Below, one piece after another: positions 29,619 to 35,008 of a stretch of DNA of 35,009 bases. Position numbers and translations under genes: made by a program. Every line of letters begins with the position of its first letter. Within the stretch, counting starts at the first letter, position 1. The DNA is taken from the IMG/VR virus record IMGVR_UViG_3300031857_024897, positions 113,746 through 148,754 of that record. The stretch is one strand, 5' to 3'. The notes beneath the pieces are model-generated. The model saw only the letters and a list, made by a program, of their open reading frames with translations. It was not told the DNA's origin and made no database searches. This DNA comes from a virus (lineage: Duplodnaviria > Heunggongvirae > Uroviricota > Caudoviricetes).

Positions 29619-30560
29619 ATGAAAAAAGTATTCCTAGATTTATCCGAAGCAAAAGGCTTAGGTGATACGCTATCAGCAACCCCTGTTATTAGGAAATTAA
29701 AAGAATCATATGGTTCCAAAATATATGTCATAACGAATTATCCTGAGTTATTCCATAATAACAGAAATGTTGAAAAAGCTTATTATGTAAATGCAATTAA
29801 TATAGAAAATGTAAAATCAACACAGATATATCATTCATCATTCAATAATGTTGGTAAGAAAAATGAGTTTGGTGTTGAATTTAAAAGTAATGTATGTGAT
29901 ATAAGACAATATCATGCTATGACGCTTGGCTTTCAATTATCTGAAGATGATTTGTATACAGAATATGAACCCGATGAATATATACCAATTGATGGACTAC
30001 CAGAAAAATTCGTTTTAATCCATCCCGCAGAAAATTGGCCCTCAAGAACCTGGGATAAAGACAAATGGGCCGATCTTGTTAATTTATTATGCGGAAATAA
30101 TATAAATGTTGTTATTACAGGTAAAAACACCGAGGAATATGGATTTTTTCACATTACAAAAAAAATATTTAGCATAAAACAAGACTTGGTTTTAGATTTA
30201 TCAAACAAAAGTAATATATCGCAAACCTGGCACTTAATTGATAAATCTTCTTGTTTTGTAACAATGGATTCAGGACTGCTGCATTTAGCAGGAACAACAG
30301 ATGCCGAAATAATTCAACTCGGAAGCTCCATAAATAACGAATTTAGAGCCCCATATAGATATATGTCACAAGATTACAAATACCATTATATCTCAGGTCC
30401 TTGTGGAATATTTTGTGCTTCAGACATGAAATATGGTGTTAGAGAATGGGGTACAATACATGGTGTTCCCCCATTAATTGGCTGCTTAGAAAATAAACCT
30501 GAATTTGAATGCCACCCATCGGTAATTGATGTTTACGAAACAATTATGAAAATCATATGA
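29619..30560 (+). CDS. GT9-like (heptosyltransferase-type) glycosyltransferase with C-terminal Cys cluster
   Basis: GLGDTLSATPVIRKLK, FVLIHP...WPSRTW and FVTMDSGLLHLAG. Confidence 0.88.
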   Translation: MKKVFLDLSEAKGLGDTLSATPVIRKLKESYGSKIYVITNYPELFHNNRNVEKAYYVNAINIENVKSTQIYHSSFNNVGKKNEFGVEFKSNVCDIRQYHAMTLGFQLSEDDLYTEYEPDEYIPIDGLPEKFVLIHPAENWPSRTWDKDKWADLVNLLCGNNINVVITGKNTEEYGFFHITKKIFSIKQDLVLDLSNKSNISQTWHLIDKSSCFVTMDSGLLHLAGTTDAEIIQLGSSINNEFRAPYRYMSQDYKYHYISGPCGIFCASDMKYGVREWGTIHGVPPLIGCLENKPEFECHPSVIDVYETIMKII

Positions 30561-33500
30561 ATAATAAACTTAAATTTGATAAAGCGTATATTTTGTATGC
30601 AACCGAAAATTATTTTCCAGTAATAGAATGTACTATAACTAGTATTAGGAAGTTCTCTAAATTACCGATAATAGTTTATTCTATAAATAAAAAATTTGAA
30701 ACATCTAATAATGACGTATATTGTGAAGTAATGTATAATATACATTTAAGGCATAAAAATAATGATGATTTATACATTAAAGGATTGGATGAATCTAATT
30801 TTTATATTAAAAGAGAAAACCCTCACATATATTCAATATTAATCCAAAAACCATTTATAACAATACATGCCTTAGAAAATTATGCTAAAACAGTATTCTT
30901 TATTGATGCCGACTCAGTTATATTCAACAATATTGACATTTTTTTTGATTTATATCCAGAAAATGAAAATATTCCTTATTTTACCAAAGGCATTTATGAT
31001 TTTTTAGCATATAACGAAATTGGTCATGAAGACGGTTTAGAAAATACCGTTGAACACAAATTATGCGAATTATTGAATATTGATCAATCATTTAGGCTAA
31101 ATACAAGTTATAGGCAATCTGGTTATTATATATCAGGCCAGAAGAGTATACCATTTTTAAATGAATGGTATATTACTTGCGGAATGGATATAATATTTAG
31201 GAACCATGCAATTTATGCCCCTTATAACGAAGAAACCGTATTAAACTGCTTATTATGGAAATATAAAATAGATAAGGGTTTGCCTTTAATATATGTTAAC
31301 GGATCGTTAGATAGAATTGATATTATCAATGATAACAAAAATTATTTAGGTATTGAAAACGAAATACAAGAATGGTTTAAACTACCTCCCCAGAAAAATT
31401 CTGTGTATTTTATACATGGTGAAAAAAGACCAAATATTATTATGGATATGATAAATAAAATTGATGAAATAAAAAACCGAGATAGCGGAAAAAAAACAAA
31501 TATATTGTATTTAGCCCCTCATTTATCAACAGGTGGTATGCCAGCTTTTCTACTAAAAAGAATTGAGGCCATAAAAAAATACTATAATGACGAATTTAAT
31601 ATTTTTGTTGTTGAATATACAAATTATGGCGATGCATTTTCAGTGCAAAAAGATATGATAAAAACTATGATCGATTCTGATAAGTTTTATTCCTTAGGAT
31701 ATTTAGGTGAACCTATTGATAATAAATACAAGTTATTGGATATTATTAAATATAATAATATAGACGTAGTACATATTGATGAACCAATTGAAGGCTTTGA
31801 CTCATTTAATCCTGTGCCAAGAGATTTAATTAACCTACTATATTCTGAGGACAGATCTTGGAATATTGTCGAAACATGCCATAATGTTGTATTTAATCCT
31901 AAACAATCAAAAGAATTTCATCCTGACGCATATGCTTTATGCTCAAAATATCATAAAAATGTAACTTTTGCTGATGAAAAAGAAATTTTAGAGTTAATTG
32001 AATATCCGATTGAAAATTTCAAAAAAACAAAAGCTGAAAAATTAAAAGCGCAATTAAGTTTAAATTTAGATCCTGAAGTAAGACACGTATTAAATGTCGG
32101 TATTTGGACACCAGGTAAAAATCAAAAAGAATTCGTAGAAATTGCAAAATTGTTTGAAAACAATAACAATTTACATTTTCATGCTATTGGTTCCTTAGCA
32201 CCTAATTTTGAAGACTATTGGGGCCCAATTGTTGAAAATTTACCTAAGAACATAACTGTATGGGGTGAAAGAAATGACGTTCATGCATTTATGGCAGCTT
32301 CTGATGTTTTAATATTTAACTCAACATTTGAGTGTAACCCAATAACTCTAAAAGAAGCTATATCTTTTGGATTGAAAATATTAGCAAGAGATCTAAATGT
32401 TTATTTAGACACATACTCACAATATATTATACCAATAGATGATAATATTTTAGACACAAAAAATAAATTAGAAAAAATTGTAAATTCAAAATTATTTTCA
32501 TATACAGCAACTAATGAACAGAATTCTTTTGCGGAAAAACATGTTAATTTATATCTAAATTTAAAAAACAAAGAATCCAAATATAAATTAGATATAGCTC
32601 AATCATTTGTTGGTCAACCTTATTTTGAAATAAAAGGAAAGGATAATAACACATATCACGTAGAATTTATTGATGAAAATAACACACTTGTTTATTCTGA
32701 AAATATCACCACAAATACTTGGATAAGACTTAACCGAAAATATTATACAAAATGGAAAACTAATGTATCTATTGATGATAAAATTATATATTCAAAAACA
32801 TTATCATTAAAAAATGAAAGAGTTTATATCGCATTCGATAGTAACTCGTTAGGCGATACAATTGCTTGGATGCCATATTGCTTAGAATTTAAGAAAAAAC
32901 ACAATTGTTATTTGATTGTATCAACATTTTGGAATAAATTATTTGTTGATGTTTACCCTGAAATTGAGTTCGTAACTCCTGGTGATATTGTTTATGACTT
33001 ATACGCGATGTATAACATAGGATATTATTATGATAATAATAGTGCCCCAGAAAACCCTCAAATAATACCCTTGCAAAAGGTGGCAACAAACATTTTAGGA
33101 TTAAATTACCATGAAATTTCTCCAAGGATTAAATTTAATCCGGGGAAAAGACCTATTGAATCTAGATACGTTACCATAGCAACAGATTCTACAGCCCAAC
33201 TAAAATATTGGAATTATCCTAGAGGTTGGGAAATACTTTGTGAGTATCTTCAAAATTGCGGATATAAAGTTATCTCTGTCTCAAAAGAAGCGTCTAAAAT
33301 TAATGGGGTTATAAACTTATCCGATACATCAATAGAAAATACTATGAATGTGATTCATCATAGTGAGTTTTTAATCGGTTTATCTAGCGGTCTATCATGG
33401 CTTGCTTGGGCATTAGATAAACATGTTGTTATGATCGCTAATTTCACGGATGAGGACCAAGAATTTAAATCAAATTGTACTAGAATTATTAATAAATCAG

Positions 33501-34022: not shown

Positions 34023-34059
34023 AAAAAAATGTGGCAGAATTAACTGCCACATTTTTTTT
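34021..34059. terminator. Bidirectional intrinsic terminator
   Basis: AAAAAAAAATGTGGCAG-AATTAA-CTGCCACATTTTTTTT between convergent genes. Confidence 0.92.
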
Positions 34060-35008
34060 ATGATAATATAGTGAAAACTAATTGTGGATGGAAATATAAT
34101 GTATATTCACTTAAAGCTACGCCAATTATCTGTACTACGTCATCTTTGGCTGATGGCGGTGTTGTAGTTATATTTCCTGCTGTAGTACTTAAATACCAAA
34201 TAGTATTAGGACCACCATATGCTCCAACACCTGAAGACACTTTTGTTACAAACCCGTGCATCAAAAAGTTTCCTGCTGCACCACTACTTAAGCTTGTTTC
34301 AAGACATAAAGCTATTGCAGGAGCTGTAGAGCCCGTATCTGCGTCAGCTTTTTTAAATTGACCAAGTGTTGCGTCAATATATACAACATCACCAAACGCT
34401 AATGATTCACCAGCAGTAAATCTGGTTATCATACCCCAACCCGCAGAGCCTGTTGTTCCTGTTGAAATTGGGTATATTGAGGTTATACCTGTAAGTGCTG
34501 GTGATGTTCCCGAAGTGCCAGATGTTCCACTCGAACCTGATGATCCGCTTGAGCCAGAAGACCCTGATGAACCACTTGAACCTGAAGAGCCAGAAGATCC
34601 TGATGTACCAGAAGATCCCGACCTACCGGATGTACCTGATGTTCCACTCGAACCTGATGATCCGCTTGAGCCAGAAGACCCTGATGAACCACTTGAACCT
34701 GAAGAGCCAGAAGATCCTGATGTACCAGAAGATCCTGACCTACCGGATGTGCCTGATGTACCACTCGAACCTGATGATCCGCTTGAGCCAGAAGACCCTG
34801 ATGAACCACTTGAACCTGAAGAGCCAGAAGATCCTGATGTACCAGAAGATCCTGACCTACCGGATGTGCCAGAAGTACCAGAAGAGCCTGACGAACCGCT
34901 CGAACCAGATGAGCCAGAAGAGCCTGATGACCCGCTTGAACCACTCGAACCAGATGAGCCAGATGTACCAGAAGAGCCTGATGACCCGCTTGAACCACTC
35001 GAACCAGA
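34058..35008 (-). CDS. (Gly-Ser/Thr-Ser)n collagen-like fibre protein with C-terminal cement/decoration-like domain; 5' partial
   Basis: The frame of track ORF 34058..34432 stays open to the window edge (...GSSGTSGRSG...GTSPALTGITSIYPISTGTTGSAGWGMITRFTAGE...). C-terminal domain AGESLAFGDVVY...KADA...YLSTTAGNITTTPP...VQIIGVA. Confidence 0.85.
   Translation of the reverse strand, partial: SGSSGSSGSSGSSGTSGSSGSSGSSGSSGSSGSSGSSGSSGSSGTSGTSGRSGSSGTSGSSGSSGSSGSSGSSGSSGSSGSSGTSGTSGRSGSSGTSGSSGSSGSSGSSGSSGSSGSSGSSGTSGTSGRSGSSGTSGSSGSSGSSGSSGSSGSSGSSGSSGTSGTSGTSPALTGITSIYPISTGTTGSAGWGMITRFTAGESLAFGDVVYIDATLGQFKKADADTGSTAPAIALCLETSLSSGAAGNFLMHGFVTKVSSGVGAYGGPNTIWYLSTTAGNITTTPPSAKDDVVQIIGVALSEYTLYFHPQLVFTILS
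34521..34871. repeat. Three near-identical 117-bp tandem repeats (13 Gly-X-Y triplets each)
   Basis: Units start at 34521, 34638 and 34755; each encodes GTS GRS GSS GTS (GSS)8 GTS. A further 54-bp-period repeat occurs at 34916 and 34970. Confidence 0.92.

Follow-up and report, generated by a model that had tools for sequence, protein, structure and literature searches.

Within a 35,009-nt stretch of phage DNA (the window, meaning the whole of the sequence analysed; bases 56614-91622 of a 91.7-kb IMG/VR contig, and positions 113,746-148,754 of IMG/VR record IMGVR_UViG_3300031857_024897), three overlapping genes, P0001, P0002 and P0003, converge on a gene for a collagen-like fibre. Together these genes probably make up a phage cassette for cytoplasmic protein O-glycosylation, the main predicted acceptor of which is the fibre encoded tail-to-tail with the enzymes. 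The key enzyme is P0002, a predicted three-part glycosyltransferase (GT) ending in a module related to TibC of Escherichia coli. An earlier first-pass annotation, made from the sequence without database searches, had suggested a virion protein-glycosylation system here, and this interpretation is supported by the sequence comparisons given below. CheckV puts the completeness of the contig at 31%, which indicates a large phage as its source.

The TibC-like module of P0002

The C-terminal module of P0002 is, as judged from its sequence, a member of the TibC/Aah (BAHT) family of O-glycosyltransferases with its catalytic centre intact. It was matched by the NCBIfam model TIGR04414 (hepto_Aah_TibC) with 307.2 bits against a cut-off of 200, over model positions 27-373 of 374, and a contig-level search with the same model agreed with this score (308 bits). 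The module also aligns to the TibC structure 4RAP (E 1.6e-55, TibC residues 40-379, approximately 35% identity). A comparison with TibC/AAH had been proposed as a check at the first pass, and both matches speak in its favour.

In TibC, Asp-110 is the catalytic base, Thr-226 and Lys-230 are the ligands of the beta-phosphate, Trp-305 binds heptose O4, Arg-286 contacts adenine N1 and is the basis of ADP-sugar specificity, and Cys-339, 342, 358 and 370 form an iron finger (PMC4358343). Asp767 of P0002, within the motif SLGDTIAW (residues 764-771, nt 32846-32869), aligns with Asp-110, the residue mutated to Ala in 4RB4, while T879, K883 and W948 are the equivalents of Thr-226, Lys-230 and Trp-305. 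The four cysteines Cys983, 986, 1002 and 1014 make up a CX2CX15CX11C motif (nt 33503-33598) and align with Cys-339/342/358/370. Both motifs had been noticed in the 1036-aa protein at the first pass, with exact coordinates for the Cys motif, and the Cys spacing and the catalytic Asp in LGD that were then ascribed to TibC hold according to the published structure and the alignment. Three of the four donor-binding residues are thus kept, T929 being the equivalent of Arg-286, and D767, T879, K883, W948 and C983/986/1002/1014 are invariant across 56 distinct phage sequences. The position setting heptose stereoselectivity, occupied by Pro-300 of TibC and by Ser-294 of Aah (PMC4358343), is Ser in P0002, like Aah. 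The module as a whole matches 772 protein clusters (50% identity) at E <=1e-30, with the classical bacterial branch included.

The lost adenine-contacting Arg, a shortened thumb region and the fusion of the module to other domains would be compatible with a dead enzyme retained to serve the fibre structurally or as a chaperone. That explanation is very improbable: among sequences of only 48-63% identity, neither the catalytic Asp nor the two residues that bind the beta-phosphate, the Trp in contact with the sugar or any of the four Cys varies, which is what an active enzyme under purifying selection would show.

Other transferase domains and the enzyme operon

Residues 1-320 of P0002 gave no match in Pfam or PDB sequence searches and the N-terminal domain therefore had to be folded. 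Its AlphaFold model (predicted local distance difference test, pLDDT, 89) has as its best PDB folds the GT6 ABO transferases, alpha-1,3-GalT, BoGT6a, UGGT and WbbM (E ~1e-7, template modelling (TM) score 0.41-0.58), and its DxD motif (D117, D119) is invariant in a 21-sequence alignment. By its predicted fold, the N-terminal third of P0002 is a GT-A-fold transferase. The middle third is a GT4 transferase going by its profile matches, with residues 503-622 matching PF00534 (35.1 bits, cut-off 26.4) and a further match to PF13692 (33.1 bits); its matches to NCBIfam glycolipid GT4 models are weak and well under their cut-offs. The GT-A and GT4 domains named at the first pass are hence both borne out.

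P0001 overlaps P0002 by 4 nt and P0002 overlaps P0003 by 11 nt, which fits a single operon. The GT9-like character of P0001 and the assignment of P0003 to DUF6165, also proposed earlier, are upheld by matches to PF01075 (55 bits, cut-off 22) and PF19662 (32.8 bits, cut-off 27) respectively. P0001 lacks the N-terminal barrel of TibC and matches TIGR04414 weakly (E 4.3e-6). Its sequence has LGD at G15-D16 and four cysteines (C262, C266, C289, C298) spaced as CX3CX22CX8C, a Cys4 motif followed by ECHP; across 15 distinct homologues neither G15 and D16 nor any of these Cys varies. The P0001 family (29619-30560) may thus have a second metal knuckle, with a Cys spacing unlike that of TibC. A P0003 homologue is present in 44 of 80 related viral loci fetched for the analysis of gene neighbourhoods below. 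DUF6165 atlas clusters are mostly viral, but in one bacterial cluster 25% of the members are fused to Glyco_transf_9, pointing to an accessory role of DUF6165 beside GT9-type enzymes. Among its relatives, the companions of the TibC-like module are GT4, the GT-A domain, DUF6165 and a GT9-like gene, with FkbM methyltransferases and a GT2-like gene as extras in some. A search of PHROGs gave no match for any of the transferase parts.

Bacterial GT9 heptosyltransferases and GT4 glycolipid synthases act on envelope glycans. As P0001 and the TibC-like module both match GT9 lipopolysaccharide (LPS) heptosyltransferase models and the GT4 domain is weakly like glycolipid GT4 enzymes, the cassette might instead modify the host envelope (LPS core, glycolipid or capsule) during infection. 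We regard this as distinctly unlikely. The envelope-type matches lie far under the equivalog cut-offs, whereas the protein-specific TIGR04414 is passed; neither the operon of the window nor the corresponding island of the related locus L005 has a recognisable flippase, polymerase or membrane-anchored component; and the branch-specific link to Ser/Thr collagen-like genes described below would be left unexplained. DNA glycosylation was also considered and dropped, the cassette having no likeness to DNA glycosyltransferases and its enzyme passing a protein-specific family model.

The collagen-like fibre gene

The gene convergent with the operon matches PF01391 with an E-value of 1.1e-24 (86.4 bits, cut-off 27.2). 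Read to the contig end, it has at least 69 consecutive uninterrupted Gly-X-Y triplets, in which (n=69) the X position is taken by Ser 51 times, by Thr 15 times and by Arg 3 times, every Y position is Ser, and Pro, Lys, Asp and Glu are all absent. The tandem DNA period of the repeat is 117 nt (39 aa). Ser and Thr account for 65% of the first 170 residues in the window, in agreement with the roughly two-thirds reported at the first pass; the (GSS)n fibre described there stands as a repeat and can now be further identified as a strict Gly-X-Y collagen-like one. The G+C content, ~30% across the window, goes up to 45% in the last kilobase, the site of this gene.

The N-terminus of the fibre is missing because the gene runs off the contig 115 nt past the window. 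Its 5′ end was not recovered, as the contigs found via an identical 124-aa fragment of the protein all break within ~550 nt of the repeat. This fragment (34058-34432) is recorded as a separate protein on 7 contigs, and the strand opposite the repeat (34058-35009) also has long open frames, which read as Glu/Asp/Pro-rich repeats. Fibres of this type are under-annotated since gene callers cut repeat genes short or pick the wrong strand.

In its predicted fold, the C-terminal domain of the fibre has a resemblance to capsid cement proteins, with modest scores. The best PDB folds for its model are all phage capsid cement or decoration proteins, these being from Adjutor, HFTV1, Sf11, Pam3, TW1, the phi29 head-fibre base, SHP and gpD, the best of them Adjutor 8saj (E 2.6e-4, TM 0.54-0.59; range of the top folds 0.4-0.59). 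Long phage collagen and 'tail fiber-like' proteins in BFVD also contain the domain, with E-values down to 2.5e-8. A homotrimer prediction for the domain scored 0.91 against 0.00 for the best of three controls, with at least 67% of contacts in agreement between runs and a partner pLDDT of at least 84. Of 30 proteins solved as same-chain pairs, 20 came up to this mark, as did 1 of 23 solved as single chains. This yardstick is rough for the trimer, which was run with three copies and a custom alignment, and since solved cement trimers exist the pass may reflect structures that the predictor has memorised. Collagen triple helices nucleating from the C-terminus are described in PMC11923368, and a C-terminal trimer of the fibre domain would fit such nucleation.

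Co-occurrence of enzyme and fibre genes

A scan of IMG/VR found at least 161 contigs encoding a relative of the TibC-like module. The 80 viral loci fetched as the forward sample carry TibC-like domains that are 48-63% identical and fall into 31 clusters at 80% identity. A convergent collagen-like gene is present in 24 of the 28 clusters that have ~3 kb or more of downstream sequence, and the X/Y positions of these genes are 63-94% Ser/Thr and 0-7% Pro. A collagen-like gene upstream of the enzyme was found in 3 loci only. On the contig of the window and in four relatives (117-215 kb) the sole collagen-like gene is the neighbour of the enzyme, while a complete relative of 322 kb has three collagen-like genes, one of them 5 kb from the enzyme. 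In the reverse direction, with viral loci chosen only by a GSS/GTS repeat, a TibC-like domain lies in the flanks of 18 of 79.

In an IQ-TREE phylogeny built from 102 dereplicated domains, the family falls into two halves (Shimodaira-Hasegawa-like approximate likelihood ratio test, SH-aLRT, 99). On the Aah-like side, a Ser/Thr collagen-like gene is nearby in 1 locus and absent in 24; on the window's side it is present in 49 and absent in 13, or 35 and 12 respectively with repeat-selected loci left out (Fisher p 6e-9 for the latter, uncorrected for shared descent). An Aah-like gene of an E. coli plasmid, which adjoins a gene for an AIDA-repeat protein, falls on the other side of the split. The co-occurrence with GSS/PT repeats that was put up for testing at the first pass accordingly holds strongly for GSS, in both directions and in one branch only, while the link to PT repeats is only sporadic.

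The window's side of the tree takes in two named phages, Mel-JY01 and LR756501 (735 kb). Mel-JY01, a cultured Microcystis phage (41% identity), has an open reading frame (ORF) of 1016 aa made of G-(S/T)-S just upstream of the enzyme on the same strand, and in LR756501 (44% identity) a 699-aa GTS/GSS collagen-like ORF is divergent from the enzyme cluster. The Mel-JY01 frame (PP395634.1, 2-3052, + strand) shares its stop with an annotated coding sequence (2519-3052), and the annotation over it consists of two minus-strand hypothetical proteins (1-651, 739-2298); this fibre gene has probably been annotated wrongly and may continue across the start of the record. A literature search on Mel-JY01 found no relevant description. 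Very long fibres also occur, namely a 3117-aa collagen-like protein in L005 (11429-20782, - strand) and a 3345-aa open frame in G001:C1 (~41500-50600), both almost wholly G-(S/T)-S with small globular inserts. In such giant relatives ~2,556 residues lie in Gly-X-Y runs, which would correspond to ~0.7 micrometre if triple-helical.

When bacterial and archaeal genomes were scanned, Ser/Thr collagen-like genes again turned up with the nearer relatives (36-47% identity, on contigs of metagenome-assembled genomes, MAGs), and no such gene was found in more than 50 loci of Acetobacteraceae, Trinickia and Lentisphaerota. Three MAG contigs labelled as Thermoplasmatales, Pacearchaeota and Nitrosotalea (L173, L176 and L198 respectively) carry phage-branch TibC-like genes, with Ser/Thr collagen-like ORFs nearby in L173 and L198; these could be mis-binned viral contigs or archaeal viruses with the same cassette. 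Within the genome collection, the relatives of highest identity (54-59%) come from the short MAG contigs L167 (Sediminibacterium) and L168 (Chitinophaga), and this binning to Chitinophagaceae is a weak lead towards a freshwater Bacteroidota host. On an Acetobacter oryzoeni plasmid (L244, NZ_CP042810.1, 3671-12340) a classical-branch BAHT gene sits between two large 'Hint domain-containing' proteins with no autotransporter, and the BAHT family may have further acceptor classes in bacteria.

PT-repeat proteins as other candidate acceptors

Upstream of the operon, P0005 is a 596-aa Cys-rich protein and P0006 a 316-aa protein, both with (PT)n-type sequence (Table 1), and they are possible second acceptors, for which the evidence is weak. 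In a rival explanation the enzymes would glycosylate these proteins, or capsid and tail subunits, with the fibre gene being adjacent only through a shared block of late structural genes. In addition to their position directly upstream in the window, PT-repeat ORFs are present in some loci without a collagen gene, e.g. L025 and L031, and in mycobacteriophages capsid and tail-tube subunits are described as being glycosylated at their C-termini (Freeman 2023, cited in PMC12619734). We nevertheless consider this unlikely, as the enzyme has a P0005 homologue nearby in no more than 3 of 80 loci and a P0006 homologue in 1 of 80, compared to collagen-like genes in 24 of 28 clusters. Moreover, the sole collagen-like gene in 92-215 kb adjoins the enzyme in five contigs, and the pairing outlasts changes of gene order, being convergent in the window, divergent in LR756501 and same-strand upstream in Mel-JY01. 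The branch-specific pairing is left unexplained by any of the three rival explanations, each of which has a low probability.

Proposed mechanism

In the mechanism proposed for the cassette, the TibC-like module would attach the first sugar to the Ser/Thr hydroxyls of new, unfolded fibre chains in the host cytoplasm. The GT-A, GT4 and GT9-like (P0001) enzymes would then lengthen the glycan, which in relatives may be decorated by the FkbM methyltransferases. The modified chains would trimerise from the C-terminal domain to give a sugar-clad triple helix, and the fibre would be displayed on the virion, perhaps on the capsid. The fibre is taken as the acceptor of the enzyme because the neighbourhood is conserved and because the Aah and TibC genes adjoin the genes of their substrates (PMC4358343).

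A structural role of the sugars is plausible. Proline and charge pairs are the known sequence-encoded stabilisers of the collagen helix, and Lys-Asp/Glu salt bridges are typical of viral collagen-like proteins. The repeat of the window has neither proline nor charge pairs and its sugars may therefore be needed for helix folding. The peptide (Gly-Pro-Thr)10 is triple-helical only with its Thr residues glycosylated (PMC11923368), in keeping with a structural role. Shielding, adhesion or mimicry as the role of the glycan is speculation, and the stabilising of a proline-free helix is no less probable than these.

Several points weigh against this interpretation. The evidence tying the enzyme to the fibre consists of sequence, predicted fold and gene neighbourhood, and the locus counts are not independent events since synteny among related phages is inherited. 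Of the loci on the window's side, 12 have no nearby collagen-like gene, and 61 of the 79 repeat-chosen loci have no nearby TibC-like domain, so that a pairing within 10 kb is common without being obligate. The acceptors of TibC and Aah are the repeat-rich beta-helical passengers of the autotransporters TibA and AIDA-I, whereas the phage candidate is a Gly-X-Y chain. The cement-like assignment of the fibre C-terminus comes from a model with a pLDDT of 75, a TM score of ~0.55 and a Pfam match (PF09956) with an E-value of 0.042, its 14.7 bits being under the cut-off of 24. Of the 56 phage-branch sequences, 51 have Thr, 3 have Ala and 2 have Val at the position of TibC Arg-286, and the region of P0002 aligned to TibC ~258-282, the beta-hairpin thumb of the dodecamer, is ~10 residues shorter; nucleotide specificity and oligomeric state may consequently differ from those of TibC. 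Neither gmhA nor an rfaE adenylyltransferase domain (II) was found in the five phage records searched (the contig of the window, three related phage contigs, two of them complete, and Mel-JY01), and a heptose donor would thus have to come from the host.

With the Arg-286 equivalent being Thr and no heptose-pathway gene found, the term 'heptosyl' may be wrong and the donor sugar of P0002 need not be ADP-heptose. Of the 'heptosyltransferase-type' enzyme of the first-pass annotation, the family membership is retained and the heptosyl part is not established. The loss of Arg-286 weakens the claim about the donor and leaves the fold and chemistry of the module untouched.

A wider version of the proposal is put forward tentatively and is rather doubtful in its entirety. 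A TibC/Aah branch would have spread through large phages with collagen-like substrates, in which a proline- and charge-free Gly-(Ser/Thr)-Ser helix would be stabilised by sugar, every Ser/Thr being densely O-glycosylated with glycans built by multiple transferases from a donor that is possibly not ADP-heptose. Such fibres, with over 2,500 Gly-X-Y residues in relatives (~0.7 micrometre if helical), would be held on trimeric cement-like capsid anchors.

Other features of the window

The coordinates of the cassette and its neighbours are given in Table 1. The remaining genes of the window code for replication and transcription functions, including an SbcC-like nuclease, primase, exonuclease and sigma factor. 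On the minus strand at 25189-29502 there are three consecutive genes for Cys-rich proteins with long (PT)n linkers, which may be surface proteins. One of them possesses a SprB repeat (PF13573), which is a hint of a Bacteroidota host, and weakly matches a 'virion structural protein' family of PHROGs. A 346-aa phage protein (9906-10946, - strand) has weak EF-hand matches, all under the Pfam cut-offs, and the 735-aa P0008 remained a phage-only hypothetical protein after a homologue search.

Table 1. Features of the proposed glycosylation cassette, fibre gene and adjoining PT-repeat genes (window coordinates).
Feature	Position	Strand	Basis
P0006, 316-aa protein ending in (PT)n or (PS)n run	26567-27517	-	sequence
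P0005, 596-aa Cys-rich protein, long (PT)n linkers, divergent from enzyme operon	27712-29502	-	sequence
P0001, GT9-like glycosyltransferase, 313 aa	29619-30560	+	PF01075
P0002, three-part glycosyltransferase, 1036 aa	30557-33667	+	ORF and domain matches
P0002 residues 1-310, GT-A-fold glycosyltransferase domain	30557-31486	+	predicted fold, DxD
P0002 residues 311-689, GT4 (GT-B) glycosyltransferase domain	31487-32623	+	PF00534, PF13692
P0002 residues 690-1036, TibC/Aah-family (BAHT) O-glycosyltransferase module	32624-33667	+	TIGR04414, 4RAP
P0003, DUF6165 protein, 121 aa, small, helical	33657-34022	+	PF19662
Bidirectional terminator-like hairpin (A8, 16-bp stem, T8)	34022-34059	.	between convergent genes
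Collagen-like gene, convergent with enzyme operon	34058-35008 in window	-	PF01391
Fibre C-terminal 147 residues, short linker and beta-rich domain	34058-34501	-	predicted fold
Collagen-like region, strict Gly-X-Y	34502-35009, on to contig end	-	PF01391, composition

Significance

Experiments have demonstrated virion self-glycosylation in very few phages, most of them mycobacteriophages. If the proposal is true, widespread large aquatic phages make heavily glycosylated collagen-like fibres, and the TibC/Aah family, known only from autotransporter adhesins, gains a new acceptor class. It would also provide a natural system for how sugars replace hydroxyproline in the stability of the collagen helix, with a bearing on phage adsorption, colloidal behaviour and recognition. 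As a phage carrying such a cassette, Microcystis phage Mel-JY01, is already in culture, the question is directly testable. Full-text literature searches gave no description linking TibC-type enzymes to phages or to collagen-like proteins.

Comparison with known systems

Glycosylated collagen-like filaments are described for BclA of Bacillus anthracis/cereus and BclA3 of Clostridioides difficile, in which triplet Thr residues are O-glycosylated, the latter by SgtA (PMC7157674), and the sugars are thought to help helix hydration and stability (PMC8968730, PMC7157674). These systems are unlike that of the phage in having GPT-rich repeats with proline and unrelated glycosyltransferase families, and in belonging to spores rather than virions. 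In mycobacteriophages, phage glycosyltransferases act on the phage's own structural proteins, as proposed here (Freeman et al., 2023, cited in PMC12619734). In that case the glycans are carried by capsid and tail-tube subunits, on short extensions of their C-termini, and neither a TibC-type enzyme nor a collagen-like acceptor is involved. Mimivirus L230 is likewise a viral enzyme that glycosylates the virus's own collagen-like proteins, and the virion has glycosylated fibres; it differs in hydroxylating Lys and glucosylating the hydroxylysine, and is a eukaryotic-virus enzyme of another family (PMC4691112).

The closest counterparts are the E. coli BAHT systems TibC-TibA and Aah-AIDA-I (TIGR04414; 4RAP, 4RB4; PMC4358343), which have a homologous module with ~35% identity. 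The phage module keeps the LGD Asp, the residues that bind the beta-phosphate, the Trp in contact with the sugar and the iron-finger motif CX2CX15CX11C, the enzyme gene lies beside that of its predicted substrate as for TibC/Aah, and the proposed activity is similar, i.e. the cytoplasmic addition of many sugars to Ser in a long repetitive protein. Unlike TibC/Aah, the phage module is fused behind GT-A and GT4 domains, with Arg-286 replaced by Thr and a shorter thumb region. Unlike Aah, it is on the opposite side of the main split of the family tree and is found in a phage rather than in a bacterial virulence locus. No autotransporter was recognised among the genes neighbouring P0002 and, as the adenine-reading Arg is absent too, the phage enzymes may represent a branch of the BAHT family with a different acceptor class.

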